The position numbers and the translations under genes are program-made. DNA of 32,000 nt. It comes from Staphylothermus marinus F1. GTDB taxonomy: Archaea; Thermoproteota; Thermoprotei_A; Sulfolobales; Desulfurococcaceae. The DNA lies in the NCBI RefSeq assembly GCF_000015945.1, contig NC_009033.1, positions 180,001-212,000 on the forward strand, in the 5' to 3' direction. Below the pieces are notes generated by a model. That model searched no databases and had not been told where the DNA came from. It saw only the letters and a program-made list of their open reading frames with translations. Below, piece after piece: positions 3,632 to 23,748 of the stretch (the first letter of the stretch is position 1; each line of letters begins with the position of its first letter).

Positions 3632-4588
3632 TTAATAAGTTCTATATTCTTTTCCAAATAACCCATACTTTATAGCTACATGAACTTCTTTGCCTATTAT
3701 GCTAGATATTGTGGATTGAATACGTTTAACAACCTCCATGGGATCATGTTTCAGCTCTGAAGCATACTGTTTTAAGCCAAGTTTTAGAATAAATGCTTTC
3801 CCTGTATCTTGATAGTTTATTTTCCTCAGAATTAATCCATAGTCTTTCAACATGCGTGGTATTAGACCTAATGCTATGCATTTGATTCTGTCACCATTAT
3901 AGCCTAGCGTTATATTATGTTTTTTCTTATGAATAATATTTACAACTATGTTTCCATGAATAGAGGCGTTTTCACATATAATTCCTCCAACAATAAATGC
4001 TACATCTAAAGATGATGGCAATTCACTTACCTCTGACAACTTAATGTTAGCAACAATATCCCTCTCAATCATAGTTAAATGCACAAGATCAACAATTAAT
4101 CCTATCTTAGTGAGCTCGTTTAGTAATAAGTATTCAATATATGGAAAATCTATTGGTTTTTCCTCAACAACGACTTTTTTGGCAACTGGTTTAACTATAG
4201 CGGTAGATCCAGGTTTTTCTCCTTGAATCATGTCTTTGATTAAATCCAGGGGAAACACGTGCATATTTATTCTCTTCTCAGCTAGTGTATCTTTTAATAA
4301 GTTAGAAACTAGGTTTAAGCACTCACTCATTTCGATATCGGGATTATTATCTAGGAAACAATCAAGTACCTCATTTTTATAACCATATAAATGAGCTCTA
4401 ATACTTGTACCCTCAACATTTGTAACTAGGGTAATATATAGGGGATTTTCTTTGCTTTCGCGTAGGAGATTATTTATTGATATTTCTGCATTACTCCTCA
4501 CAGACCTAACTAGTTTTCCCTCGAGGAGGAGTCTGCTCCTAAACACTATATCTCTGAATATTTTAGGCCTCTCTTCTTTAGAGGGCAC
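3632..4588 (-). CDS. Hypothetical 318-aa protein of unknown function, two-lobed with a charged linker (..GEKPGSTAIVKPVAKKVVVEEKPID..)
   Basis: This is a long clean ORF with a GTG start at 4588 and only antisense shadow ORFs inside it. A TATA-like element lies ~22 nt upstream. I recognised no family motif. Confidence 0.5.
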   Translation of the reverse strand: MPSKEERPKIFRDIVFRSRLLLEGKLVRSVRSNAEISINNLLRESKENPLYITLVTNVEGTSIRAHLYGYKNEVLDCFLDNNPDIEMSECLNLVSNLLKDTLAEKRINMHVFPLDLIKDMIQGEKPGSTAIVKPVAKKVVVEEKPIDFPYIEYLLLNELTKIGLIVDLVHLTMIERDIVANIKLSEVSELPSSLDVAFIVGGIICENASIHGNIVVNIIHKKKHNITLGYNGDRIKCIALGLIPRMLKDYGLILRKINYQDTGKAFILKLGLKQYASELKHDPMEVVKRIQSTISSIIGKEVHVAIKYGLFGKEYRTY

Positions 4589-7425: not shown

Positions 7426-10400
7426 TCACCGCCGCTTTTTTCTAAACCATATAACTAATATAAGCAATGTTGCTATGGCAACAATTATTGATATATAAAG
7501 ATATATTGGCGGGGTCGGAATCCAATTATTGATACTATTATTGTTGCTTATTGTCTTGCTTGTAGTATTCATAGTTATTGATTGATTCGGTATTGATGTA
7601 GTTGATTCAGACGTGTTTGTCCCGGTAATTTCTACTATTTTCGAAACTACAGCTTTATTTCCGGATTTATCCATTGAAATAATTGTTAGATTATGTATTC
7701 CAGGCTCTAATTTTATCTTAGTTATCAAAGATTTATTTGTAGAAGACACATTTTTCAATACGCTTCCATCAACGATTATTTCAGCATATTTAATCGGCGA
7801 ATACTTATCTGACACATTAATTTCTGCAAAGTATTCATTGTCCAGCTTATTTATAGTTATATTTATTGCGGGAGGTTTTCTATCTATTACTAATTTTAGT
7901 AATACTATTCTATAATTCATTCCTTCATCAATAAATATGAATGAGACATAGTATGTGCCGTCGGATCTAAACTCTATTGATTGATTAATAACTTTCCCAA
8001 CGGTAAAACCTAGATAAGTAATGGGCATGTAGTCATCGAGACTTGGTGGTTTATATTTATCTTTCTGAATATTTACACCTGCAAATATCCTCTTACTAAT
8101 ATTATCAAACACTTGAAACCTAAACAGTATACTTCTATTATTTGTATATGTATCATTTATCGGAGATAGAATATTAACAATGGGCTTATGAAGATCAAGA
8201 TAGAAACCTATAATGTAGTTCGAGGAATGCCCAGCAGAGTCTATTCCTTTAAGTTTTAATATATAGTATCCCTCTCCTGGAACCATTAATTTAAACAAGT
8301 ATCCCCCGTCTTCATTAAACACTCCAAGCCTTGCATTATTGTCTATCACTATTCTTGCAATACTGTTGTTTATATATAGTGTAGCGTTTTCCAAGAATGC
8401 ATCAGATATGTTTACATATAATGGTATTAGGTATGATCCATCGTATTCAGTAACATATGTTATGTCTCTCCTTATAGGATTAAATCTGGGCACAACACTA
8501 TTGTTTCTCCACGAGCCACCTACTCCGATAACCGGTATTCTCATATATAGTTTTGGTGGATGATTATCTACAAACCATACATACTTATAAACAATGTTTT
8601 CCCCGTAATAACAAGAAGCATTTATCAATACTTCATGTATACCATCCAATAATTGCGAAGTATCAATAACTATATTAGCATTAATCCGGCCATTAATGCT
8701 TGGAATAGATAGAAACAATTTATCGTCAATATAAACATTTACTAGGAAAACTCTATTACCAGATATATTAAATCGAACTATTCCCTCAATAAACGTATTA
8801 TTTAGTGGTTCTGGATTAATTGATAAAACGGGTTGCTCATAGGTATTATTAAATATGATCCTAAACATTACAACTCTTAAATTTCCAGCTAAATCTACTG
8901 CTTTAAATATTAAGTAGTGTTCTCCGTTAGGATATTCTATTGTGTTAAGCAATAAACCATGTTCTCCCGCGATGTCGGTTTCAAATAATATTTTTGAATC
9001 CAGTATAACAGATAAGTTTTTGAAATGTTCATCATTCACTATGATTGTTAAATTCAATATCCCATTTACAACCGTGTTATTTGTTAATCCACGAATAATG
9101 ATTATTGGAGGATTTGAGTCTTTTACAAGGAACAACCTAATAGTATAGTTTAGATCCTGAACTCTTAGATCCAAATAATACGGTCCATCGGGTAGAATAG
9201 TTGTGTTGATCAAGATATAGTTTGTTCCTTGTGTTAAAGTATAGTTAGCTAGAATTGAATTGTTTATATATATTTCAACTTTATATGTTGAATCCGATAG
9301 TATTTCAAGTGTATATATAGCTCCAACTATGGATTGATTTATTGGATTAACAACTTTAACATGACTGCCTAATACTCTAAAAACTATATTGGTATATGAG
9401 CTAAAACCATATGTATTCCAAGACTTAATTTCTAGAGTATACGTTCCCTCGTCTAGATTTATTTCTTTAAAGAACTGATTATGTTTAGTATATGTGGAAA
9501 ATACTATATCATTGCTTTGATTAAGTATTGATACCTCTGTAATATATACGGCTGATTCATTATCAATAAATGATGCATTTATAAATATAGGGTTAGAAAC
9601 AATGCTTTCATTTCTTGGAGTAACCACATGTATAACTGGCGGTGAGTAATCAACAGTAGTGTTTTCATTAAACCTTAATAATTCGATTACGGATGAAGCT
9701 GTATTGTTTTTATATGCAAACATAAAGTATACTGTGTTATTCAGGTATACAGTATCATATTTTGAAGCTATATGCTGTAGTAAGTGATCCCAGTATATAA
9801 TGTTGCTTTTATTGAGTTTAGTATAAGTTAATACATAGTATTCATTCCATTTTATAATAGGCTCTGGATATGTATCATTGTCATGATCTGTAAGAAATAG
9901 CGTTATACGGGGATTCGTTGAGTTTAAGAACAATCTATGAGTCGCATTGTTAATTACATTAAAATAATTTATTAATAATGATTTATTAGCTACTGCATAG
10001 TAAATAATTGATAAAAAGTTTCCTAAGGGATAAAAACCATATAGTGAAAATTCATTGATACTGATAGGGAAGGGAATAGTGTAGAATATATTCTTTGTAT
10101 CGTCATATATAGCAAGTACTAATGTATTAGTGCTATTTAGTGGTATAATAAAAGTAGTGTTTACTACGATTAGTGGAGGAGTTATTATAGGTGTTCCATT
10201 AAATATTCGAGTTTCTCCATCAACATTAATTGTTGTTTCATTACTACTAATGCTTATTGTTACATTATGATCTATAAGAATTGTTGAAGGATAAATGTTT
10301 GATCTAGTGCCGTAAAATATGTTTCCACAATAAATCATTTTAGATATGAGAGCAGGCTGATTTTGAATAATAGTTTTACTTATTGGATCAATAATTATTT

Positions 10401-10950
10401 CTTCAAGATAAGTGTTCCCATTTAAACTCATCATAGTAGTATATATATGGATTTGATTAGTTAAATTGTCATAATAAATTCCATTAAATCCTGATACAAC
10501 GAGGTTGCCTGTATCTATCATTTTATCGAGCACTTTCTCCACATTATCTAGATTATATAATACTATATGGATAACATCTGATCCATGCTCTAAAATTAAC
10601 AAGTACTTATTAAAAACATAATACGCAGGCTTACCATAGGGTGTGCTAACTGTAAATGAGAAATTCCCATATATAATAGAAGTATTTATCCCGTACGAAT
10701 AGAGCATTAGTAGCTGGTTATCATGTGTGAATAAAGCATAATTCTTAACGATTTGTTCAACCCCTGAACGAAAATGCTCGATCAGATAAGGATTCCCCAT
10801 GGAGTCCGAGAGGCTAGATAAATCTTTATTTAAACTTGTAGCATAGAAGCTATATATTGGAATACTTGATATTATGAGGAGAAACAATAAAAACAACACA
10901 TACAAAGTATTGTATTTTCCAAGCATTACATACACCTTACCTATTCTCAC
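7426..10950 (-). CDS. Large membrane-anchored extracellular glycoprotein with tandem Ig-like repeats (possible S-layer-associated or surface protein)
   Basis: The N-terminus has a signal/anchor segment (MLGKYNTLYVLFLLFLLIISSIPIY). The true start is probably ATG 10926 rather than GTG 10950. I counted roughly four dozen N-x-S/T sequons by eye. About seven ~85-95-aa repeats share the pattern [PK]PxIxI..P.N.[ST]..V.D..V.I.(N/D)G..L.(D/E)G.(H/Y).L.I.A.D..GN. A Ser/Thr/Asn-rich stalk is followed by a C-terminal TM helix ending in the RKKRR stop-transfer motif. Confidence 0.7.
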   Translation of the reverse strand: MRIGKVYVMLGKYNTLYVLFLLFLLIISSIPIYSFYATSLNKDLSSLSDSMGNPYLIEHFRSGVEQIVKNYALFTHDNQLLMLYSYGINTSIIYGNFSFTVSTPYGKPAYYVFNKYLLILEHGSDVIHIVLYNLDNVEKVLDKMIDTGNLVVSGFNGIYYDNLTNQIHIYTTMMSLNGNTYLEEIIIDPISKTIIQNQPALISKMIYCGNIFYGTRSNIYPSTILIDHNVTISISSNETTINVDGETRIFNGTPIITPPLIVVNTTFIIPLNSTNTLVLAIYDDTKNIFYTIPFPISINEFSLYGFYPLGNFLSIIYYAVANKSLLINYFNVINNATHRLFLNSTNPRITLFLTDHDNDTYPEPIIKWNEYYVLTYTKLNKSNIIYWDHLLQHIASKYDTVYLNNTVYFMFAYKNNTASSVIELLRFNENTTVDYSPPVIHVVTPRNESIVSNPIFINASFIDNESAVYITEVSILNQSNDIVFSTYTKHNQFFKEINLDEGTYTLEIKSWNTYGFSSYTNIVFRVLGSHVKVVNPINQSIVGAIYTLEILSDSTYKVEIYINNSILANYTLTQGTNYILINTTILPDGPYYLDLRVQDLNYTIRLFLVKDSNPPIIIIRGLTNNTVVNGILNLTIIVNDEHFKNLSVILDSKILFETDIAGEHGLLLNTIEYPNGEHYLIFKAVDLAGNLRVVMFRIIFNNTYEQPVLSINPEPLNNTFIEGIVRFNISGNRVFLVNVYIDDKLFLSIPSINGRINANIVIDTSQLLDGIHEVLINASCYYGENIVYKYVWFVDNHPPKLYMRIPVIGVGGSWRNNSVVPRFNPIRRDITYVTEYDGSYLIPLYVNISDAFLENATLYINNSIARIVIDNNARLGVFNEDGGYLFKLMVPGEGYYILKLKGIDSAGHSSNYIIGFYLDLHKPIVNILSPINDTYTNNRSILFRFQVFDNISKRIFAGVNIQKDKYKPPSLDDYMPITYLGFTVGKVINQSIEFRSDGTYYVSFIFIDEGMNYRIVLLKLVIDRKPPAINITINKLDNEYFAEINVSDKYSPIKYAEIIVDGSVLKNVSSTNKSLITKIKLEPGIHNLTIISMDKSGNKAVVSKIVEITGTNTSESTTSIPNQSITMNTTSKTISNNNSINNWIPTPPIYLYISIIVAIATLLILVIWFRKKRR

Positions 10951-11051: not shown

Positions 11052-11753
11052 ATGGGAGCTGGATACACTGGACTCTACATTGCTTCAAAACTTCTAGAAA
11101 ACAATCATAAAGTTTTAGTTATCGAGTCAGAGCCAGGTTTGACTCATGAGAAATATTATTCGGGAATTAACGGAAATAAGGTGAGGATTTCGAAGCGTTT
11201 CTGGCATTATGTTGATGATCTTGGCCTGAATATAATAGATGAGGATGAATATGGTTTCTGGGTTAGACCATTAGATGTAATCGTATTATTGGCTTCTAAA
11301 GTTATTAGCCTTGGCGGAGAAATAATTGTTGATTCTATTATTGAACCCACATATAAAATTATGGATGATAGAATCATAATTATAGGTGCAAGTGTTAGAT
11401 CGGTTGAGGACGAGGGTGGGCTAGATAAATTTTATATTTTAACTCGAGGAATAATAGATACTTCTCCATCAGCAATCATAGTGAATAACCTTATTGATAG
11501 ATTAAAACTAGGAATACCTATTCAGGGTGCAGGACCACAGATACCGGGCTCAGATGATGTTATAGGTAAAACCACATGGATTTTTCCGGGAATATTAGTA
11601 GCGGGGCTTGCAGCAATATATACTAATGCAGGATACATACCATTTCCAGATATTGGCCCATTATTTGGAAGCGGCTATAGAGCTGTAGAATTATTTGTTA
11701 AGGGTTATCCTAAAAACCCAGAGGATTTCTATAGTTTCCCAAGCATTATATGA
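11052..11753 (+). CDS. FAD/NAD(P)-binding Rossmann-fold protein, distantly Thi4-like (tentative); start codon uncertain
   Basis: It has the dinucleotide-binding motif MGAGYTGLYIASKLLENNHKVLVIES. The C-terminal PGILVAGLAAIYTNAGYIPFPDIGPLFGSGYRAVE resembles the Thi4-family tail (PGL.VAGM..........GP.FG.M..SG). The beta-1 strand (KYDVAI) is encoded upstream of the only in-frame ATG (see findings). Confidence 0.4.
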   Translation: MGAGYTGLYIASKLLENNHKVLVIESEPGLTHEKYYSGINGNKVRISKRFWHYVDDLGLNIIDEDEYGFWVRPLDVIVLLASKVISLGGEIIVDSIIEPTYKIMDDRIIIIGASVRSVEDEGGLDKFYILTRGIIDTSPSAIIVNNLIDRLKLGIPIQGAGPQIPGSDDVIGKTTWIFPGILVAGLAAIYTNAGYIPFPDIGPLFGSGYRAVELFVKGYPKNPEDFYSFPSII

Positions 11754-13618: not shown

Positions 13619-14962
13619 TTAGATAAGGTTATAGTAGAGGAATTCTGCGGGAGAAGGTATTCCTGCTAATTCTCTGATCTCATTTCTTTTCAGCTCAATA
13701 TATGTTTGAATAACTTCTTCGCTGAAAGCTGGTTTTAAATATTCATGATCTGATTCGAGCTCGTCTAATGCTTCATCTAGGTTTCTAGGTAGTTCTCTTA
13801 TTCCTAGACTTCTTCTTTTTTCGATAGGCATTTTATATACATTCTCTTCTATGGGATCGCCTGGATCAATCTTTTTCTTTATTCCATCTAATCCGGCAAG
13901 TATTATGGCTGATGATGCAAGGTATGGATTAGCTGTTGGGTCAGGGGGTCTATACTCTATACGGGTCATATTACCGTTATCTATGTTTGCTAATGGTATT
14001 CTTACTGCAGCACTACGATTAGCATAGCCCCATACAAGATATACTGGTGCTTCATAGCCTGGTATTAATCTTCTATAACTATTCGTTGTAGGGGAAACTA
14101 TTGCTGATAAGCTTCGTCCATGCTCTAGTAGTCCCCCTATAAAGTATCTTGCAAATTGGCTTAAACCATACTTCTCATCTGGGTCGTGGAATAAGTTTTT
14201 ATCCCCGCTCCACAAGCTTACATGTATATGCATACCGTTCCCATTATCACCCATAATCGGCTTAGGCATAAAGACTGCTTCAAACCCGTTTATTCTCGCA
14301 ATTTTTCTAGCAATCATTTTAAAGTATTGTATAAAATCACCTAAGGAAACAACATTTTCTTTATTACTGGTAATCTCTACTTGACCACTACTAGCCACTT
14401 CGTGGTGATGCTTAACAGTATTTAATCCTGCCTCGTGAAGAGCGGATATTATAGATCTTCTAATATGCGCAACTCTATCAATTGACTCAACTATGTGGTA
14501 TCCCTTTTTCAAGGGTATACTTGCATTATCAGTCCATGGAGACTCTGCTGAATATATCTCTAATATTTGCCTACCAGGTTCAACAATGTATTTTAGTTTC
14601 TCGAAAAGGAAAAACTCCATTTCAACACCCATCACTGACCTATATCCTTCGCTTTGAATTATTTCCTCAGCTTTCTCAGCAATATACCTTGGATCCCTAT
14701 CGAGCCTCTTCCACTCTGGAAGATATACTTGGGAAATATATCCATATACATTTTTATCCCAGGGAAGCACTATCTCTGTCTCTTTAACTGGCTTCAAGAT
14801 TACATCGCTAAAAGATATATCGAGAAAACCATATACACTGCTACCATCAAATAAAGTTGTAACACTTGACGGATCTTTTTCATCGCTGAGCAAGAGAGAT
14901 GTGTTGCGGAAAACACCGATTAAATCGGTAAAATATAGGTTAACGAATTTTATACGGGTCAT
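13619..14962 (-). CDS. glnA: Glutamine synthetase, type I
   Basis: Motifs seen are FDGSS, MPKPIMGDNGNGMHIHVSLW, NSYRRL..YEAP, and the RIE..RPPDPTANPY region. The 447-aa size is typical. Confidence 0.9.
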   Translation of the reverse strand: MTRIKFVNLYFTDLIGVFRNTSLLLSDEKDPSSVTTLFDGSSVYGFLDISFSDVILKPVKETEIVLPWDKNVYGYISQVYLPEWKRLDRDPRYIAEKAEEIIQSEGYRSVMGVEMEFFLFEKLKYIVEPGRQILEIYSAESPWTDNASIPLKKGYHIVESIDRVAHIRRSIISALHEAGLNTVKHHHEVASSGQVEITSNKENVVSLGDFIQYFKMIARKIARINGFEAVFMPKPIMGDNGNGMHIHVSLWSGDKNLFHDPDEKYGLSQFARYFIGGLLEHGRSLSAIVSPTTNSYRRLIPGYEAPVYLVWGYANRSAAVRIPLANIDNGNMTRIEYRPPDPTANPYLASSAIILAGLDGIKKKIDPGDPIEENVYKMPIEKRRSLGIRELPRNLDEALDELESDHEYLKPAFSEEVIQTYIELKRNEIRELAGIPSPAEFLYYNLI

Positions 14963-15075
14963 CTTGTATCATCCTCCACAAATTATACAAGAATCAATTT
15001 TTAATTCCGAACAAAATATTAAGAATTATAGTGAAATATACAGATATTATACGGATAATTAGGAGGGATGATATA

Positions 15076-15540
15076 TTGACTAGGAGTTCAACCATACTTG
15101 ACGATATCGATCTTAAAATATTAGATCAACTAAGAAAATATTCTAGGACGAGTTTTAGAGAAATCGCTTCAAAACTAAACAAGCCTGTCTCAACAATATA
15201 TGATAGAATTAAACGATTAGAGAAACATGGAATTATCCGTGGCTTTTCGATCGATATAGACTATAGAAAACTAGGATACCAGATAAAAGCTCTAATACTA
15301 GTAAATGCAGAGGGTAAAGATCTAATCAAGGTTGAACAAGATATAGCATCTAATCCCAATGTTCAAGCAGTATATGATATTACAGGCGAATACGATATAG
15401 CATTAATAGCTAGTTTCAAAACAATTGAGGAACTAGATGCTTTCGTAAAAAAGCTACTAAGCAAGCCAGGCATTAAACACACAAGGACAAGCATTGTGTT
15501 CAGAACAGTTAAGGAAACCCAACACTTACCCCTCAAATAA
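15076..15540 (+). CDS. Lrp/AsnC-family transcriptional regulator
   Basis: The N-terminal HTH is LDDIDLKILDQLRKYSRTSFREIASKLNKPVSTIYDRIKRLEKHGII. It is followed by a RAM/ACT-like ligand domain (ALILVNA..VYDITGEYDIALIA). The preferred start is TTG 15076, 9 nt after AGGAGG (15061-15066). The track start at 15031 is in the same frame. Confidence 0.8.
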   Translation: MTRSSTILDDIDLKILDQLRKYSRTSFREIASKLNKPVSTIYDRIKRLEKHGIIRGFSIDIDYRKLGYQIKALILVNAEGKDLIKVEQDIASNPNVQAVYDITGEYDIALIASFKTIEELDAFVKKLLSKPGIKHTRTSIVFRTVKETQHLPLK

Positions 15541-15555
15541 AAAGGTGTATATGTA

Positions 15556-16866
15556 TTGGCAGTTAAGGTAAAATGTTTGAAATGTGGGTTTGAAAGTAAT
15601 AATTATAGAGGCTATAAATGCCCTAACTGCGGCTCACTCCTAGAAGTAATCCATGATTTTGAATGGATTATAGAATGGGAAAATAATGGTATATGGATAT
15701 TTTCAAAAATGCTTCCACAAACTAATCACAGAATATCACTGGGTGAGGGATGGACCCCATTAATTAGATCAGATAATCTCTTCAGAAATGAAAACATATA
15801 TTTCAAAGATGAAAGTAGGAATCCAACTGGTAGTTTTAGAGATAGAGCAGCTGCATTAATAGTGAGCGATGCATTAGATCAGGGTGCTAAGAGGTTAGTT
15901 GTTGCAAGCGATGGAAACATGGGTGCGAGCATTGCTGCTTATTCAGCTAAAGCAGGATTACCTGTTACGATATATGTTCCTGTATGGACTGATCCAGAAA
16001 AAATATTATTAATGAAAGCTTATGGTGCAAAAGTAATTGTTAGTGAAGAGGATCTAGACACTCTACTACAATATGTTGAGAGAAGAGCTAGGAAGGAAAA
16101 ACTCTACAATGCATCAAGCACTTATAACATATTAGCTATGGAGGGGTTGAAAACTATTGGTTACGAAATATATCTACAGTACGGAGGGGTTCCTAGTACA
16201 GTATATGTTCCACTAGGTAGTGGATTAACAATTCTAAGCCTCTATCATGGGTTCTCAGAAATGCATTCAAACAATATTATTGATCATATACCTAAACTTA
16301 TAGGTGTTGAAACATGTGCTAATCCTGTATACTCCTCTATACACGGCAACCCTACTAAGTGTAACGAAGAACCAATGCCCGGCTTATATTATAGAAAGCC
16401 TGTGTTGAAAGAATATGTTTCGGAGATCATAGATAAACATGGAGAAACAATTGTTGTGAACAATAAGCAAGTATATATGGCAGCTAAGAAACTCGCAATG
16501 GAAGAGGGATTATTTGTAGAGCCTTCCTCCGCGGTTGCATTAGCTGGAGCACTCAAAATCGGGGGAACTGAGAACTCAATAATATTACTGACTGGACACG
16601 GACTAAAGAGTCCAACCCCCTATACTAGACCTAGTAGAGAAAGATACACTCCATTTCCAGGCTCTACCAAGTCGCTAATATTGAAAATTATATCTGAAAA
16701 ACCAGGTTTGACTGGATATGAAATATGGAAAAGACTTGGGTTAAGAATATCTGTTCAAGCTGTTTATCAGCATCTGAAGGAATTAGAAAAAATTGGACTT
16801 ATATATTCTAAGTTCTCGGAAAACAGAAAACTATATTTTCCAGTATATAAGAAGTCAAGTAGTTGA
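15556..16866 (+). CDS. Threonine-synthase-fold (fold-type II PLP) protein lacking the catalytic lysine, fused to a C-terminal winged-helix domain
   Basis: It has an N-terminal zinc ribbon (CLKCGFE..CPNCGS). ThrC-like motifs are FKDESRNPTGSF-R-DRAA (Arg where the PLP lysine is expected), ASDGNMGASIAAYSAKAGL, VPLGSGLT and EPSSAVALAG. The C-terminal ~65 aa (LTGYEIWKRLGLRISVQAVYQHLKELEKIGLI) look like a PadR/ArsR wHTH. Confidence 0.7.
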   Translation: MAVKVKCLKCGFESNNYRGYKCPNCGSLLEVIHDFEWIIEWENNGIWIFSKMLPQTNHRISLGEGWTPLIRSDNLFRNENIYFKDESRNPTGSFRDRAAALIVSDALDQGAKRLVVASDGNMGASIAAYSAKAGLPVTIYVPVWTDPEKILLMKAYGAKVIVSEEDLDTLLQYVERRARKEKLYNASSTYNILAMEGLKTIGYEIYLQYGGVPSTVYVPLGSGLTILSLYHGFSEMHSNNIIDHIPKLIGVETCANPVYSSIHGNPTKCNEEPMPGLYYRKPVLKEYVSEIIDKHGETIVVNNKQVYMAAKKLAMEEGLFVEPSSAVALAGALKIGGTENSIILLTGHGLKSPTPYTRPSRERYTPFPGSTKSLILKIISEKPGLTGYEIWKRLGLRISVQAVYQHLKELEKIGLIYSKFSENRKLYFPVYKKSSS

Positions 16867-17018
16867 TTAAACAATTTTTTGAGTTTTCAATGTTTTCCAT
16901 TACACGATCACTTATTGGAACCTCTTATTGAATTAAAATGTAATCTTAAAGTTCTTCTTAAAGTATAAACTTTATATTAGATTCCAATAGTATCTGATTA
17001 TAGAAAAAATAGGGGGAC

Positions 17019-17780: not shown

Positions 17781-19077
17781 AGCGAATATTGTTGAAGCAG
17801 GCTATCATAAAGGTTTTTTTATTAAGAATATCTCTTTTGAGCTCAGTAAAGGAGAAATACTCGTTATAACAGGTAGGTCTGGATCTGGAAAAACAACACT
17901 ATTAAAAACCCTGCTCAACATTCTACATTTGTCAAATGGTTATATTAAAGGAGTAGTACTGATTAAAAACAAGCCTATAACGCAGTATTCTAGTGAGGAA
18001 CTCTACAATCTAATATCATATATTCCTCAAGACCCATGGTATGCAGTTATCGGGCACGTGGTCTATGTAGAGTATTGTCATGCATTATCTGTGGCAAACA
18101 TTAAATGTGATCCTAAAAAACTAAAAATATATGGGCTAGACAAACTAGAAAACCACATAACCTATGGCTTGAGCGCTGGAGAGTATCAAAGACTTTTATG
18201 GGCATCAAGTATTGATAAAGGATCAGAAATTCTTTTCCTAGACGAACCACTCATATATATAGATAGCACTAGTAGATCAAGATTCATAGGATTTGTGAAA
18301 AAATTCATTGAAACAGGTGGCACTGCTATAATAGTTGATCACATGCCTGATAACTGGGTAGGATTTGATCCAAAAATACTGGTTCTAGATAAGGGTGTTC
18401 AAAAATATCTCGGACCATATAGGGAAGATCTTCTACCTAAACCGATCATAAAAATAATGAAACAAACCAATCAGTATAAGGGAAGAAAACCTTTACTAGT
18501 TTCTAAAAATATATGGTTCAAATATCCAGGCGAAAACTATGTTTTACGAAACATTAGTTTCAAAGCTTATAGTGGAGAAATAACCGGTATATCCGGAAAG
18601 AACGGTGCAGGCAAGACAACTTTACTGAAAATACTTGCTGGCATACTAAAGCCGAATAAAGGAAATATTGTAAGATATGGTAGAATAATCTATCTACCTG
18701 AAAACCCATTACTATACTACTCCTATCCTACGCCGAGAGAAGAACTATCCGCCTCGGCAAGGGATCCTAGAGAGTTTGAAAGAATCACGAAAAGATTTAG
18801 TCTAGAAGAACTTCTTGACAGACCACTATCTATGCTTAGTAGTGGTGAGCGGCGCCGTATAGCTCTTGCATCAGCTTTTCTTGCAGGTTACGATATTTAT
18901 TTATTAGATGAACCCAGTGGTGGGCTTGATAACTATAGTTTGAAGGAATTATTAGATGAAATAATGTTTTTGAGTAAAAACAATAAGGCAGTCATTATTG
19001 CAAGCCATGATGAAAGACTATATCCCTACTTTGATAAAACATGTATTCTCAGAGAAGGTGCGCTTATATGCGAATAA
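17758..19077 (+). CDS. ecfA: ECF/ABC transporter ATPase, fused duplicated nucleotide-binding domains (EcfA-EcfA')
   Basis: There are two full ABC cassettes. Walker A: GRSGSGKTT and GKNGAGKTT. Signature: LSAGEYQRL and LSSGERRRI. Walker B: ILFLDEP and IYLLDEP. Confidence 0.8.
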   Translation: MAVEKVIEANIVEAGYHKGFFIKNISFELSKGEILVITGRSGSGKTTLLKTLLNILHLSNGYIKGVVLIKNKPITQYSSEELYNLISYIPQDPWYAVIGHVVYVEYCHALSVANIKCDPKKLKIYGLDKLENHITYGLSAGEYQRLLWASSIDKGSEILFLDEPLIYIDSTSRSRFIGFVKKFIETGGTAIIVDHMPDNWVGFDPKILVLDKGVQKYLGPYREDLLPKPIIKIMKQTNQYKGRKPLLVSKNIWFKYPGENYVLRNISFKAYSGEITGISGKNGAGKTTLLKILAGILKPNKGNIVRYGRIIYLPENPLLYYSYPTPREELSASARDPREFERITKRFSLEELLDRPLSMLSSGERRRIALASAFLAGYDIYLLDEPSGGLDNYSLKELLDEIMFLSKNNKAVIIASHDERLYPYFDKTCILREGALICE

Positions 19078-19787
19078 TCGGTATACTAGTAGATCTTGTT
19101 TATAAGTCATTATTCCTTAAGGGGGAGGAAGGATATAGAGCAACTAGTTCTCTATTAAAAATATTGTTATTAGCCTTAATGCTTACGTATTTCCTACTTG
19201 ATCCCTCATTGTACTCGTCAATAAATATTGTATCATTAATATTAGTGCTGGGAATAACTGGTTTTAGCTTATCATGGTTCTTATCATCATTTACATTATC
19301 AAGCATCCCTGGATTATGGTATGCAGTTACAGCCCTCTTATTCTCATATACTGGATTATCAGAGCCTTTATCATATACGGATGCATTAATAATATATCTT
19401 CGCACCACAACATTTTCACTTATCCTCTTATTCTTCGGATCAATTATTAGCCCTGTCAGGCTTGCAAATATATTATTTAGACTAGGTTTTAGAAAGAATA
19501 GTGTTGCACCAATACTACTATGGAGATCAATGCCGTATGGATTAAAGTCTATGCAGGAGTCTTTAGCGATAGGAGAGTTGAAAAAGGAAAATGTTGGAAA
19601 AAGACTGGGTCCAGCAATGGCTTCACTACTAGAATATAGTGACATGGTTAGAGAATCGAACTATTATCGAATAAACACTTTAATGAAGCATGCGTTCCCA
19701 GTCAAGAGCTCGAGGAAACATAATTTACTTCTTATTATAGCCTGTGTTATAATAGGCATATTATTATTGCTTAAAACACTAACGTAG
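19068..19787 (+). CDS. ecfT: ECF transporter transmembrane (T, CbiQ-like) component (tentative)
   Basis: This is a hydrophobic ~240-aa protein immediately after, and overlapping, the fused ATPase gene. The preferred start ATG 19068 overlaps the ATPase stop at 19075-19077. The call rests mainly on position in an S-AA-T module. The long antisense ORF 19100..19645 is a shadow. Confidence 0.5.
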   Translation: MRIIGILVDLVYKSLFLKGEEGYRATSSLLKILLLALMLTYFLLDPSLYSSINIVSLILVLGITGFSLSWFLSSFTLSSIPGLWYAVTALLFSYTGLSEPLSYTDALIIYLRTTTFSLILLFFGSIISPVRLANILFRLGFRKNSVAPILLWRSMPYGLKSMQESLAIGELKKENVGKRLGPAMASLLEYSDMVRESNYYRINTLMKHAFPVKSSRKHNLLLIIACVIIGILLLLKTLT

Positions 19788-19907: not shown

Positions 19908-20783
19908 TCACAGAAGCCCCTTTTCAACGAGAATTTTCCTCGGCACCGAACAACATGTTTCAATAATTTTGAGACCATATTTTTTAATCAGTAAAGGATG
20001 TGGATTAACAATTCTATTAACTAGTTTGTTCTCAATAAGGATCTCGTCTAATGAGTTTTTTACTGGAGAAGGACGCATACATCCCATACTTAATTCCGTG
20101 TTTAATTTTCTCCTAGCATATTTTAAAACATCAATAACCTGGTTAATTTTTGGTATAGAAACATTTACGAATAATGTTCCGCGTGCAGGTATTATTAGAA
20201 GAAAAACAACTAAGTATGGATTGTAATCTCTTAATAAATCAATAGCTGTGTATTCCCAATCAATACCTCCATATTTTGCACCTATCATAATATGTGGAGC
20301 AATATATGGGGGGCCTTCTCTGGCTAAAGTCTCGTATGTTCTAATGTAGTCTTCGATGGTCTTGTTGAGATGCTTAATATCTCTAATAATCCTATTATCC
20401 AATACTAGTTCGTAATCTACTATATCGACACCAGCGTTTCTCAGCTTTACTGCTAGTTCTTTATCGATTAATCCTGGATGAACGTTTATGATGAGGCCAA
20501 AATTTTTCTTTATCTCTCTTATAGTGTCAAGATATGGTTGGATCGGTAGATATCCCTCCCTAGTAAATCCGCCGCTGATCAATAATCCATGGGCTCCTTT
20601 TTTAGCGTAATATCTTGCTAGATCATATAATTGTTTAGGTGTATATACGTGATCCATGCCTTTCAAGAATCTTCCCATACAGTAGTTGCACATAAGCCAG
20701 CATTTATTGCCAGTAATGCTTATACTGGGAAATTTTTTACTGGGCATAAATACTAGGATCTCTCTACTCAATATAGTTTTCAC
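19908..20783 (-). CDS. Radical-SAM protein, LipS1/LipS2-type (biotin-synthase-related) candidate lipoyl synthase subunit
   Basis: It has a single radical-SAM motif, CWLMCNYC (CX3CX2C). TIM-barrel-like features include GGFT and HPGL, and a C-terminal Cys pair (ETCCSVP) is present. Its GTG start overlaps the upstream radical-SAM gene's stop (GTGA at 20780-20783). I cannot tell from sequence alone which of the two genes is LipS1 and which is LipS2. Confidence 0.6.
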   Translation of the reverse strand: MKTILSREILVFMPSKKFPSISITGNKCWLMCNYCMGRFLKGMDHVYTPKQLYDLARYYAKKGAHGLLISGGFTREGYLPIQPYLDTIREIKKNFGLIINVHPGLIDKELAVKLRNAGVDIVDYELVLDNRIIRDIKHLNKTIEDYIRTYETLAREGPPYIAPHIMIGAKYGGIDWEYTAIDLLRDYNPYLVVFLLIIPARGTLFVNVSIPKINQVIDVLKYARRKLNTELSMGCMRPSPVKNSLDEILIENKLVNRIVNPHPLLIKKYGLKIIETCCSVPRKILVEKGLL

Positions 20784-21781
20784 CTATTTCTCAATTTTTC
20801 TAGTTCACTAATGATACTGTCTAAATACTTCATTACATGGTTTCTGGAATAGAAATTATAGAAGGGGCCGCGGGGACTCTCATTATAGTAGGGTCTATTA
20901 CAATATGGACATCCGCTGGTTATAAATATTCCCATGTATTTCTCTATATGCCTAACTATTTCTTCGAGAATATCATTATTAACTCTAATGCTTTTATCTA
21001 GTATCTCATTGAGCCTATATCCTTTAAGCAAAAAATACCGGATGATTTGAGCTTCACGATAGCGTAATATGTTTATCTCAGGCCTCATTAATCCTTTATC
21101 TATTGGTGTATAAGCGAATAACGCTATATCGGCTCCTCTCATAATAAGATCTTCCATCAACTTATACAGTTCTAATGGTTTCTCACCCAATCCTACAATT
21201 AAGTGAACTATGACCCTCCTATATCCATATACTTTTATGGCTTCATTGATAAATTTCATATATATTCTCCACGAGTACGGTTTATTAACGATTCTAAAAA
21301 TCCTAGGAGACGAAGCATCTAATCCTACTCCAAGATAATCTACTCCATATCCCTTGAATTCTTCGAGATATTTTGATGAAATAGGTGTTATGGCTAAACT
21401 AATAGGTAATTCAGGAACATTATCGTTTATTTCTCTAATAATCTTTAGTGCTTCATCTAGAAACCAAGGCTTAATTATTGTCTGCAAACATATCCTTTTA
21501 ATTTCATCTCCATGTTGTTTAAGAGCATTTACTACCTTACTCAACCCAATAGGTGGCCAGGTAATTCTTGATAAGAATTTTTTCGATAAGGAACTCATTA
21601 TGCTTTGAGCACAAAACTTGCAATGTGCTAAACATCCTTTATCCGAGTATTGTAGCAAGTATATTATATTCATTGGATAACTTATTTGCGGACCATCCAT
21701 TAACCCTAATTTGACGAGAGACCATAAAGATGCTCTAATCATTATGTCATCCATTAAATCATCCTCACCCTTATTGAACAC
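20780..21781 (-). CDS. Radical-SAM protein, LipS1/LipS2-type (biotin-synthase-related) candidate lipoyl synthase subunit
   Basis: It has the radical-SAM motif CLAHCKFC (CX3CX2C) and an additional C-terminal Cys pair (TSGCPYCNRPYYNE) that could hold an auxiliary cluster. It is translationally coupled to the downstream radical-SAM gene and divergent from lplA. Confidence 0.6.
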   Translation of the reverse strand: MFNKGEDDLMDDIMIRASLWSLVKLGLMDGPQISYPMNIIYLLQYSDKGCLAHCKFCAQSIMSSLSKKFLSRITWPPIGLSKVVNALKQHGDEIKRICLQTIIKPWFLDEALKIIREINDNVPELPISLAITPISSKYLEEFKGYGVDYLGVGLDASSPRIFRIVNKPYSWRIYMKFINEAIKVYGYRRVIVHLIVGLGEKPLELYKLMEDLIMRGADIALFAYTPIDKGLMRPEINILRYREAQIIRYFLLKGYRLNEILDKSIRVNNDILEEIVRHIEKYMGIFITSGCPYCNRPYYNESPRGPFYNFYSRNHVMKYLDSIISELEKLRNR

Positions 21782-21887: not shown

Positions 21888-22643
21888 TTGTCATCTTGGA
21901 GATTAATTATCGATGAAGCAAATGTTTACTATAATATGGCTATGGATGAAACACTACTTATTTTGAGAGAAAAAGGACTTATTCCAAACACTGTTAGAAT
22001 CTATATAATGCGTCCCAGCGCGGTTACTATTGGTTATTTTCAGAGGATAAAGGATGTATTAAATCTAGACTACTTGGATAAATACGGAATAGATTATACT
22101 CGTAGAATAACTGGTGGTGGAGCAGTTTATCATGATCAAGATGGTGAAATAACATATTCTATAACAACAGATATAGATAGTATTTCCAAGAATATTCTCG
22201 AATCATATAGGAAGATATGTTCAGGAATAGTTGAAGCATTAAAAGAGCTTGGTGTTAAAGCTGAGTACAAACCTATAAATGACATAGTAGTAATGGGGAA
22301 AAAGATCTCTGGAAACGCTCAAACTCGTCGTAGAAAAGCTCTTATGCAGCATGGAACACTTATGTATGGAACCAACATTGATATACTGGCCAAAGTACTT
22401 AAACCCCCAAAAGAAAAACTTTCCTCACATAAAGCTAAAACTATACACGATAGAGTAACTACTCTAGAGAAAATCTTAGGTTACAAGCCTAGAAAAGAAG
22501 ATGTTATTGATGCATTGATAAAAGGTTTCGAAAAAGCTCTAAGAATAAGATTGGTTAGGGATAATTATTGGAAGGAGGAGCTAGAGCTAGCCAATTCGCT
22601 TATTGATAAATACAGGTCTAAAGAATGGATCTTTAAGAGGTGA
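21888..22643 (+). CDS. lplA: Lipoate-protein ligase A, catalytic (N-terminal) domain protein of a split LplA/LplB ligase
   Basis: Motifs seen are RRITGGGAVYHD (lipoyl-AMP binding loop) and GKKISGNAQTRRRKALMQHGTLMY (catalytic lysine region). At 251 aa it lacks the accessory C-terminal domain, which is encoded by the next gene. Confidence 0.85.
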   Translation: MSSWRLIIDEANVYYNMAMDETLLILREKGLIPNTVRIYIMRPSAVTIGYFQRIKDVLNLDYLDKYGIDYTRRITGGGAVYHDQDGEITYSITTDIDSISKNILESYRKICSGIVEALKELGVKAEYKPINDIVVMGKKISGNAQTRRRKALMQHGTLMYGTNIDILAKVLKPPKEKLSSHKAKTIHDRVTTLEKILGYKPRKEDVIDALIKGFEKALRIRLVRDNYWKEELELANSLIDKYRSKEWIFKR

Positions 22644-22935: not shown

Positions 22936-23748
22936 TTGATAATTGGTTTCAAAGGCTTCAATATAAAAGATATAATTTACTTATCGATCGGGGTATTCTC
23001 AGGAGGATGCGAGCCATCGGTATCTAACGAGTTGAGGCCTACACTGTTATTGGTGAAAGAAAATAATGGCATAGCTGTTATCAGGGAAAACAATGTATTA
23101 TCAATTATATATGACGGATATAATGCTCCTACAGGAATAATACTGAATCAGAAACACGGAGAAATCTATATGCACACATTCAATGTCGGGAACGAAAGAG
23201 TAGAAGGATACTTGACCCGCTCAAAAATTGATCCAAGAATTTTCGCTGGTTTATATGCATGTATGATAGGTAAGGGCTCTGATCAAAGAAAAGCGTTTCT
23301 AGAAGTCATGGATACTCTAGCATTGGGAGAAGGCGATCCTCTTAAATATATGAAAACTATTATTTCTGAACATAAGGTTTTCCACAGACTTAACAATGCT
23401 TTGAATCGATTAATCAAGAATGAAGAGTTACTGAGAAAAATAATATATAATAAATTAATTATTGGAGGAAGAAGCTTAGGCAATACAGCGTATGTATCGG
23501 CAATAATTAAGACCAGTCATGGTTTTATTAAAGAATGTATTGAGCCCATAAGTATTAGTACCTATAAGGAATACAAATGGATCCAACCCAACAAATTCTT
23601 TATATGTGGTTTACCAAATGAAATAATGGAGTTTGCTTCGAAATATGGATCCGAAAAACATGTTGATCCATATATGGGTAATTGTATTGTGGGCGATGAT
23701 GCTGTCAGGCTTGTTATTTTACTAGAAAAATACTTGTCAAGTACTTAA
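22936..23748 (+). CDS. Hypothetical 270-aa protein, last gene of the lplA-lplB transcription unit
   Basis: The TTG start at 22936 directly abuts the lplB TAA (22933-22935), with zero intergenic bases. I recognised no family motif, no lipoyl-lysine hairpin and no predicted TM segment. Confidence 0.5.
   Translation: MIIGFKGFNIKDIIYLSIGVFSGGCEPSVSNELRPTLLLVKENNGIAVIRENNVLSIIYDGYNAPTGIILNQKHGEIYMHTFNVGNERVEGYLTRSKIDPRIFAGLYACMIGKGSDQRKAFLEVMDTLALGEGDPLKYMKTIISEHKVFHRLNNALNRLIKNEELLRKIIYNKLIIGGRSLGNTAYVSAIIKTSHGFIKECIEPISISTYKEYKWIQPNKFFICGLPNEIMEFASKYGSEKHVDPYMGNCIVGDDAVRLVILLEKYLSST

Follow-up and report, generated by a model that had tools for sequence, protein, structure and literature searches.

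A winged-helix threonine synthase-like protein of Staphylothermus marinus as a predicted ligand-sensing repressor of the adjacent ECF operon

What is the function of a protein that is built on the plan of threonine synthase (ThrC), lacks the catalytic lysine of that enzyme and ends in a domain resembling those of DNA-binding proteins? The question is raised by a gene at positions 15556–16866, forward strand, of a 32-kb stretch of the Staphylothermus marinus F1 genome, here called the window, within which all coordinates are numbered. The original prediction, made from the letters of this DNA, read the gene product as an enzyme-derived sensor or regulator with a logic like that of the MocR regulators, and a ThrC scaffold without catalytic lysine joined to a winged helix-turn-helix (wHTH) makes this the best reading. 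The conserved partner and predicted target of the protein, which that prediction left unmentioned, is the operon immediately downstream, which encodes an energy-coupling factor (ECF) transporter. We consider it probable that the protein is a ligand-sensing repressor of this operon. The fuller proposal, in which the ligand is pyridoxal 5'-phosphate (PLP) or a phosphorylated B6 vitamer, is put forward tentatively. The literature that we searched holds no description of a ThrC-like/wHTH protein as a regulator.

The threonine synthase scaffold and its altered pocket

The protein was predicted to be a ThrC-type, fold-type-II PLP protein with a zinc ribbon and several ThrC-like motifs, and this description holds. 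The PALP domain is matched with high significance (Table 1), and the motifs align with ThrC: ASDGNMGAS corresponds to the ASTGNT loop, VPLGSGLT to the PLP-phosphate loop and EPSSAVA to EPASAAA. The best sequence matches among solved structures are the threonine synthases 2d1f, 2zsj and 1uim (phmmer, E about 1e-37 to 1e-35). An AlphaFold2 (AF2) model, computed from a 46-sequence family alignment, has a mean predicted local distance difference test (pLDDT) score of 91.6, and its best Foldseek matches are again threonine synthases (6cgq, 1v7c and 2d1f, E ~1e-26). Among the PDB matches of the whole model, only plain ThrC and other fold-type-II enzymes appear, and the fused ThrC-like/wHTH architecture is absent. 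The zinc-ribbon residues C7, C10, C22 and C25 are invariant in the family alignment. Because the canonical, Lys-bearing ThrC paralogues of Bathyarchaeia also carry the ribbon, it was inherited from a ThrC ancestor.

The C-terminal wHTH that had been claimed for the last part of the protein is borne out by the model, where three helices (res. 370–381, 387–394 and 400–413) are followed by a β-hairpin (res. 416–421 and 424–429). The isolated domain resembles the DNA-binding domains of MarR, Fur, ArsR, PadR and MecI, with template modelling scores of 0.72–0.80 and root-mean-square deviations of 1.2–2.5 Å, and individual Foldseek matches include MepR, ZitR, Fur, PerR, MecI, PadR (1xma, 6abt) and F-93. 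Pfam matches to residues 370–427 are weak and spread over HTH_11, HTH_24, MarR, HTH_5 (ArsR) and PadR (E 1e-5 to 1.5e-3). HTH_11 is the sole HTH model above its cutoff for the window protein (25.7 vs 25 bits); PadR (PF03551), with a cutoff of 27, reaches 19.0 bits (E 0.0015), and many homologues have a precomputed PF03551 match. The recognition-helix region is strongly conserved, with Y404, Q405, H406, L407, L410 and G414 invariant or nearly so across phyla in the family alignment.

An AGA codon had been predicted to place arginine at the position of the Schiff-base lysine. The codon was read directly, and the three pairwise phmmer alignments agree, with the query 'nptgsfRdr' lying column for column on 'NPTGSFKDR' of 2d1f, 2zsj and 1uim, so Arg95 occupies the position of the internal-aldimine lysine (K61). 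The substitution belongs to the family: among the 120 nearest homologues the column holds R in 113, Y in 4 and F in 3, and no Lys, which rules out a strain-specific mutation or a sequencing error. Across 201 family members, the counts are R 176, K 15, Y 4, F 3, L 2 and S 1. Orthologues with Lys, which the original prediction would have taken as a hint of such a mutation or error, do occur as these 15 distant members (one Bathyarchaeia subclade and three Asgard sequences), but they give no hint that the Arg of the window is an error. They keep the wHTH and every other family-specific change, most keep the transporter neighbour, and in the tree they nest within the family clade, apart from canonical ThrC. 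Because the Lys-bearing members are otherwise like the rest of the family, the function of the family does not depend on the lysine, which would be in keeping with binding rather than catalysis.

The remainder of the pocket was compared between the 201 family members and nine Lys-bearing ThrCs (T. thermophilus ThrC and eight paralogues adjoining family genes), with positions in T. thermophilus ThrC numbering. We take N87 to contact O3' of PLP, loop 187–191 its phosphate and T317 its N1, and we take D62, R63, E287, G320 and K322 to be structural or part of the PLP environment. These positions are conserved in the family: the N87 equivalent is N in 199/201 members, loop 187–191 reads G-S-G-x-T (G in 201/201, S in 194, T in 171), the T317 equivalent is T in 181/201, and the other five are essentially invariant. 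T85 and T88 presumably bind the substrate, and N154 and R160 its phosphate; we assume that these four, with S155, hold the phosphate and carboxylate of O-phosphohomoserine. All nine canonical ThrCs retain the five residues. In the family, the T85 equivalent is D or N in 199/201 members, T88 is mostly replaced by M or L, N154 by T or S, and the R160 equivalent is never Arg; the window protein has D, M, S and A at the four positions. The same four are replaced in the Lys-bearing members as well. By this comparison, the family appears to have lost the residues that hold the substrate phosphate in ThrC while keeping the PLP-contact positions, and the protein is most likely catalytically dead, derived from a zinc-ribbon threonine synthase of Archaea but no longer an enzyme. 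A compensating salt bridge between the arginine and Asp119 was considered and dropped as evidence: the pairs R/D (94), R/N (80) and K/N (15) show a suggestive association of K with N and no clean covariation.

Relatives were found in at least 588 species genomes in a scan of one genome per species. They come from Thermoprotei/Desulfurococcales, Bathyarchaeia (the bulk), Thermococci, some Methanomicrobia-like metagenome-assembled genomes and the Asgard lineages Odin, Heimdall, Hermod, Promethearchaeia and Baldr. One family sequence (locus L046, DATHCJ010000024.1) comes from a metagenome-assembled genome labelled Candidatus Limnocylindrales bacterium (Chloroflexota); because it nests among Bathyarchaeia members, mis-binning or contamination is likelier than a bacterial member.

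The ECF operon and its predicted palindromic operator

The neighbourhood was sampled as the window and 80 further loci (81 in total), and all open reading frames (ORFs) lying no more than 6 kb from the family gene were clustered. A homologue of the window's S-component is present in 58/81 loci and lies at +1 on the same strand in 48/81. The window S-component scores 91.5 bits on PF07155 (cutoff 26.7, E 8e-26). The fused ATPase that follows is similar to ECF_ATPase_1 and ECF_ATPase_2. The membrane protein assigned as T-component has zero Pfam or NCBIfam matches; seven loci carry a homologue of it, in six of them at +3. The order of S-component, fused double ATPase and T-like membrane gene is common to the window, locus L001 and the cultured Thermosphaera chiliense. 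The overlaps between the three ORFs (Table 1) suggest translational coupling.

The gap that separates the family gene from the S-component gene contains a palindrome. Its window-clade form, TTCT-TAAAGnnnnnnCTTTA-TAT, and its Bathyarchaeia form, TAGTATAGTTATAACTATACTA, have the common architecture TAwAGT-N4-ACTwTA, and the TTCT[TAAAG..CTTTA]TAT arrangement is repeated in loci L001–L009. The exact palindrome has a single match in the window. In the 1.24 Mb of the window and 80 loci together, there are 25 exact matches vs about 0.95 expected from composition, and 25/25 lie directly upstream of S-component genes; the conserved predicted operator is associated exclusively with the S-component promoter. 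The palindrome is present in L001 despite a divergent arrangement, and the 25 matches include L048, where the S gene lies 3.6 kb off on the other strand. When up to one mismatch is allowed, 51 sites fall within 12.2 kb of S promoters and 27 within 1.2 Mb elsewhere, an enrichment of ~190-fold.

As an independent test, we scanned a metagenome collection with the operator core pattern alone. Of 120 matches, 54 immediately precede an S-component gene, and another 5 are next to a family gene where the contig ends; the remaining matches have neither the full palindrome nor a related gene. A wider regulon was considered and discarded, as the scan gave no second target class and no pdxS, pdxT or thrC targets. 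Variants in Asgard lineages read TCAAGT-N4-ACTTGA and ATAAGT-N4-ACTTAT, and the core AGT-N4-ACT is kept in Thermoprotei, Bathyarchaeia, Odin and other Asgard lineages. This persistence across phyla matches the near-invariance of the recognition helix.

In Bathyarchaeia a TATA-like box adjoins the palindrome, and in the window clade the two overlap, an arrangement that would place the palindrome in the core promoter of the ECF operon. Archaeal repressor sites usually have such a position. An RNA element or riboswitch in the leader is unsupported, because an Rfam scan of the leader found no family at threshold (CRISPR-DR6 at 16884–16921, with 21.7 bits vs 39, was taken as chance) and the leader RNA is no stabler than its shuffles (z -0.41).

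One operator-like sequence with a single mismatch, TAAAGCTAAAACTATA, lies at 22430–22445 inside the lplA coding region. It is probably non-functional, because chance alone would give the window about 1.3 sites of this kind.

A further gene is associated with the S-component in Bathyarchaeia, where a PurM/AIR-synthase-superfamily gene usually follows the S-component gene, apparently in the same operon. Its product most resembles HypE (2z1e, E 1e-29) and, less strongly, ThiL (93 bits) and SelD; it falls below every NCBIfam cutoff and is devoid of the C-terminal Cys of HypE. The protein could be an ATP-dependent enzyme, such as a kinase, that acts on the imported compound.

Predicted mechanism, ligand and competing explanations

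We propose that the ThrC-derived domain has become a small-molecule sensor, connected by a flexible linker to the C-terminal wHTH. The protein would act as a dimer, as suggested by the palindrome, whose half-sites are 10 bp apart, and by its ancestry: ThrC-type enzymes are dimers. The dimer would bind TAwAGT-N4-ACTwTA over the TATA box and start-site region of the ECF operon and would block the initiation of transcription of the S-component, fused ATPases and T-component. A ligand in the old PLP pocket would set the affinity for DNA and tune the uptake of a micronutrient. The leading candidate for this ligand is PLP or a B6 vitamer in phosphorylated form; the transporter would then be a B6 importer of the PdxU/HmpT type, and the whole system an archaeal functional analogue of bacterial PdxR.

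The case for B6 comes from both the pocket and the transporter. PdxU and PdxU2/HmpT, which belong to COG4720/PF07155, are among only three characterised prokaryotic B6 transporters (PMC9997740), and the substrate of HmpT has been identified as pyridoxamine (PMC4860826). The regulons of the bacterial PLP-binding PdxR include pdxU, and MocR regulators are absent from Archaea (PMC5320631). Of the proteins in the PDB, 4HZU chain S, the HmpT/PdxU2 of L. brevis, alone is related in sequence to the S-component (E 3.8e-9). The subfamily conserves HmpT Glu41 and the D-x-x-T-G-Y motif, has F or Y for W76, and carries E or D at position 43 and D at position 70 in 58/58 S-components; HmpT Tyr120, Asn140 and Gln143 are not alignable. 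Because a PLP-pocket sensor adjoins an importer of the PdxU family, the two would form a coherent B6-homeostasis unit. The case for transport of B6 vitamers by the S-component is suggestive and falls short of decisive.

Several observations weigh against this picture, some touching the regulation of the operon and others the identity of the ligand. In the S-component, H84 of HmpT is replaced by an invariant K (K86) and Q87 by an invariant E (E89) in all 58 sequences; because these two residues differ from HmpT, the substrate may not be pyridoxamine, and such invariant but different pocket residues suggest a defined substrate, possibly distinct from that of HmpT. HmpT itself was first predicted to carry hydroxymethylpyrimidine (HMP), a B6 look-alike (PMC4860826). 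The AF2 model, for its part, carries no ligand. The roles given above to the ThrC active-site residues are our assumption, based on T. thermophilus structures. What would tie the protein to the palindrome is their co-localisation and clade-wise co-variation. In the 81 loci, the 200 nt that precede the family gene contain no site at up to one mismatch, and autoregulation through an upstream operator was rejected on this ground. The operator of T. chiliense is degenerate, with two mismatches. Members from Thermococci and the Methanomicrobia-like group are without an adjacent S-component, so the regulon is not uniform. In five Thermococcus loci (L030, L040, L042, L074 and L202), the genes downstream encode a 107–123 aa membrane protein and the ribose-5-phosphate isomerase RpiA, and the Thermococcus intergenic regions contain no convincing operator, only a sequence resembling a B recognition element and TATA box, GAAAG-N2-TTTTAAA.

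With an unchanged regulatory scheme, the sensor-repressor could respond to a compound other than B6, such as HMP phosphate, some other precursor of thiamine, an O-phospho-amino acid or another micronutrient, and the transporter would carry a corresponding substrate; we regard this as possible, if somewhat doubtful. K86 and E89 speak for it, as do the earlier assignment of HmpT to HMP, which resembles pyridoxine (PMC4860826), and the third gene of Bathyarchaeia, HypE-like and, below the cutoff, ThiL-like. The D or N at the T85 position is new with respect to ThrC and could contact an amino group. The positions kept in the pocket, however, are those that hold the phosphate, O3' and N1 of PLP in fold-type-II enzymes, and the sole characterised members of PF07155/COG4720 are B6 transporters (PMC9997740); for O-phosphohomoserine in particular, the loss of the residues that bind the substrate phosphate in ThrC argues against it. 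A different doubt concerns the palindrome, which might be bound by another factor or act as an RNA or termination element, with the wHTH serving protein-protein contacts or a partnership with the transporter. We judge this improbable. DNA binding by the ThrC-like protein is itself a prediction, wHTH domains can mediate protein contacts, and the palindrome often lies just past the stop codon of the family gene, where a terminator would be expected. Yet the site tracks the S gene even where this is divergent or distant, it abuts or overlaps TATA-like boxes, the leader has no Rfam match and no unusual stability, and it is the sequence of the half-sites, not mere pairing, that is kept across phyla in parallel with the recognition helix.

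Two further explanations were considered. The original prediction had the protein sense an amino acid or a PLP-amino-acid adduct and, with Lrp, control glnA and other nitrogen or amino-acid genes. Its starting point is real in the window: the family gene begins 15 nt after the end of an Lrp/AsnC gene (15031–15540), and the pair is divergent from glnA (13619–14962). A canonical thrC that is divergently adjacent in eight Bathyarchaeia loci could be cited in the same sense. The arrangement with Lrp and glnA, however, recurs in none of the 80 other loci, where no Lrp or GlnA homologue adjoins the family gene; Lrp occurs in two loci at a distance of at least 6 kb and GlnA in one at 5.5 kb. The glnA/lrp intergenic region (14963–15075), proposed as a regulatory target, has no operator-like site, the sole exact site of the window being at 16959, and the 200-nt regions scanned upstream of the family gene, which are free of sites, cover most of the intergenic regions shared with divergent thrC. 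On these neighbourhood statistics and the operator-free intergenic region, a functional linkage to Lrp and glnA is rejected, and the amino-acid version as a whole is very unlikely. A working threonine synthase or other PLP enzyme with an accessory wHTH, perhaps a bifunctional 'trigger enzyme' like RbkR or BirA, is unlikelier still. It would agree with the annotation, since several sources name family relatives 'threonine synthase' and the protein matches the NCBIfam equivalog of that name, NF004170 (PRK05638), over its full length with 699 bits (cutoff 421). It would also agree with the retained fold and PLP-contact residues and with the Lys of 15/201 members. That model, however, describes the very wHTH-fused family in question, and its name therefore adds no independent support; on the general thrC model, TIGR00260, the protein stays below the cutoff (115.6 bits vs 167.1). 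In 186/201 members the Schiff-base column holds Arg, Tyr, Phe, Leu or Ser, and the equivalents of T85, T88, N154 and R160 are replaced in all members, those with Lys included. Where it can be seen, a separate canonical ThrC is present in the same genomes: in the eight Bathyarchaeia loci, a Lys-bearing zinc-ribbon ThrC divergently adjoins the family gene, and since the two stand side by side they are distinct paralogues coexisting in one genome, the canonical sequences forming a clade of their own in the tree. The name 'threonine synthase' given by NF004170 is probably a systematic misannotation. Thermococcus family members carry the annotation as well.

If the ThrC-like protein is a regulator, as we favour, Thermococci, Bathyarchaeia, Desulfurococcales and Asgard archaea are wrongly credited with a threonine synthase in reconstructions of their metabolism. 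We know of no B6-responsive regulator in Archaea, and the family would supply a specific candidate whose operator and target are defined. It would also illustrate a path to a pseudoenzyme, along which the lysine and the substrate site of a PLP enzyme disappeared, the pocket for the cofactor stayed and a DNA-binding domain was added, with the residue at the Schiff-base column now drifting between R, K, Y, F, L and S. The bacterial MocR regulators would be an independent parallel on a different PLP fold. The uncharacterised S-component subfamily and the PurM-like enzyme are candidates for missing steps of vitamin uptake or salvage. In its boldest form, the proposal would describe the first transcription factor on a fold-type-II PLP scaffold, an ancient pan-archaeal (including Asgard) B6 repressor that binds PLP reversibly because the lysine was discarded, and a three-gene B6 salvage cassette with a PdxU-like S-component and the HypE-like PurM protein of Bathyarchaeia as a hitherto unrecognised B6-vitamer kinase; taken in full, this is unlikely.

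Further features of the locus and comparison with known systems

The features of the locus are collected in Table 1.

Table 1 Features of the ThrC-like/wHTH gene, the downstream operon and related loci (window coordinates unless a locus is named).
Feature	Position	Strand	Remarks
ThrC-like/wHTH gene, predicted sensor-regulator	15556–16866	+	436 aa, TTG start; Pfam, NCBIfam, AF2
N-terminal zinc ribbon, C7-x2-C10 ... C22-x2-C25	15574–15630	+	family alignment
PALP domain, res. 60–347, presumed ligand-binding module	15733–16596	+	PF00291, E 3.9e-75
AGA codon, Arg95, Schiff-base lysine column (K61 of T. thermophilus ThrC)	15838–15840	+	direct reading and alignments
Flexible linker, res. 359–368, PALP body to wHTH	16630–16659	+	AF2 pLDDT below 50
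C-terminal wHTH, res. 370–429	16663–16842	+	Pfam, AF2, Foldseek
Recognition helix, res. 400–413	16753–16794	+	AF2 topology
Predicted operator TAAAGTATAAACTTTA, palindrome TAwAGT-N4-ACTwTA	16959–16974	.	45 nt before the S-component ATG
TATA-like box TTTATATTA, presumed ECF operon promoter	16971–16979	+	overlaps the right half-site of the operator
ECF S-component, predicted regulated target, 253 aa	17019–17780	+	PF07155/COG4720 (PdxU, HmpT/PdxU2)
Fused double ABC ATPase (EcfA-A' type), 439 aa	17758–19077	+	two ABC_tran stretches; 23-nt overlap with the S gene
Putative ECF T-component, 248 aa membrane protein	19041–19787	+	assigned by position; 37-nt overlap with the ATPase gene
PurM-superfamily gene	L012:3431–4435 and about 28 other Bathyarchaeia loci		+2 from the family gene; absent from the window
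Divergent canonical ThrC	L018:4153–5379; L036, L037, L048, L052, L053, L058, L062		

Immediately beyond the ECF operon, two adjacent radical-SAM genes (19908–20783 and 20780–21781, both on the reverse strand) lie beside a lipoate-protein ligase gene (21888–22643, LplA-B_cat). The radical-SAM pair and the ligase may form a cluster of a two-protein archaeal lipoyl synthase with its ligase. In T. chiliense, a gene of the biotin/lipoate ligase family (BPL_LplA_LipB) lies about 3 kb past the ECF operon. Four other ORFs of the window have no Pfam match at E <= 1e-5 (7426–10950 and 3632–4588 on the reverse strand, 11052–11753 and 22936–23748 on the forward strand); one of them encodes 1174 aa.

Among known systems, canonical ThrC is the structural relative, with the same fold, 28–30% identity, the shared PLP-contact positions and a zinc ribbon common to the archaeal paralogues. 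The family differs from it by the replacement of the Schiff-base Lys, T85, T88, N154 and R160, by a phosphate loop that reads GSGxT where ThrC has GNAGN, by about 75 extra residues that make up the linker and wHTH, and by its position in a separate clade. The window S-component stands in a similar relation to PdxU/HmpT: it belongs to PF07155 and keeps HmpT Glu41 and D-x-x-T-G-Y, whereas it is longer (253 aa vs 166 aa) and has Lys and Glu in place of His84 and Gln87.

The design of the regulator recalls the MocR proteins GabR, PdxR and TauR, in which an effector domain derived from a PLP enzyme is joined to a wHTH and of which PdxR senses PLP and has pdxU in its regulons (PMC5320631). In MocR proteins, however, the aminotransferase domain is of fold type I, the wHTH is N-terminal and of the GntR type, and the PLP lysine is retained, whereas the ThrC-like protein combines a fold-type-II domain with a PadR/MarR-like wHTH at the C-terminus and a zinc ribbon at the N-terminus, and most members have no lysine. 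The two are not homologous as fusions; the design is convergent, and the family is no member of MocR. A second parallel is RbkR, a riboflavin kinase fused to a wHTH: it too is an archaeal factor derived from a vitamin enzyme, with a palindromic operator before vitamin biosynthesis and ECF genes, and comparative-genomics logic also led to its discovery (PMC5397151). RbkR differs in being bifunctional, with kinase activity, an N-terminal MarR-type wHTH and an unrelated enzyme fold, whereas catalysis has apparently been lost in the ThrC-like protein. The same distinction separates it from trigger enzymes in general (RbkR, BirA, NadR and PutA), which are active where the ThrC-like protein is predicted to be inactive. 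Its kin are thus the enzyme-derived regulators MocR/PdxR and RbkR, and what is new is the fold-type-II scaffold and the discarded catalytic residue.

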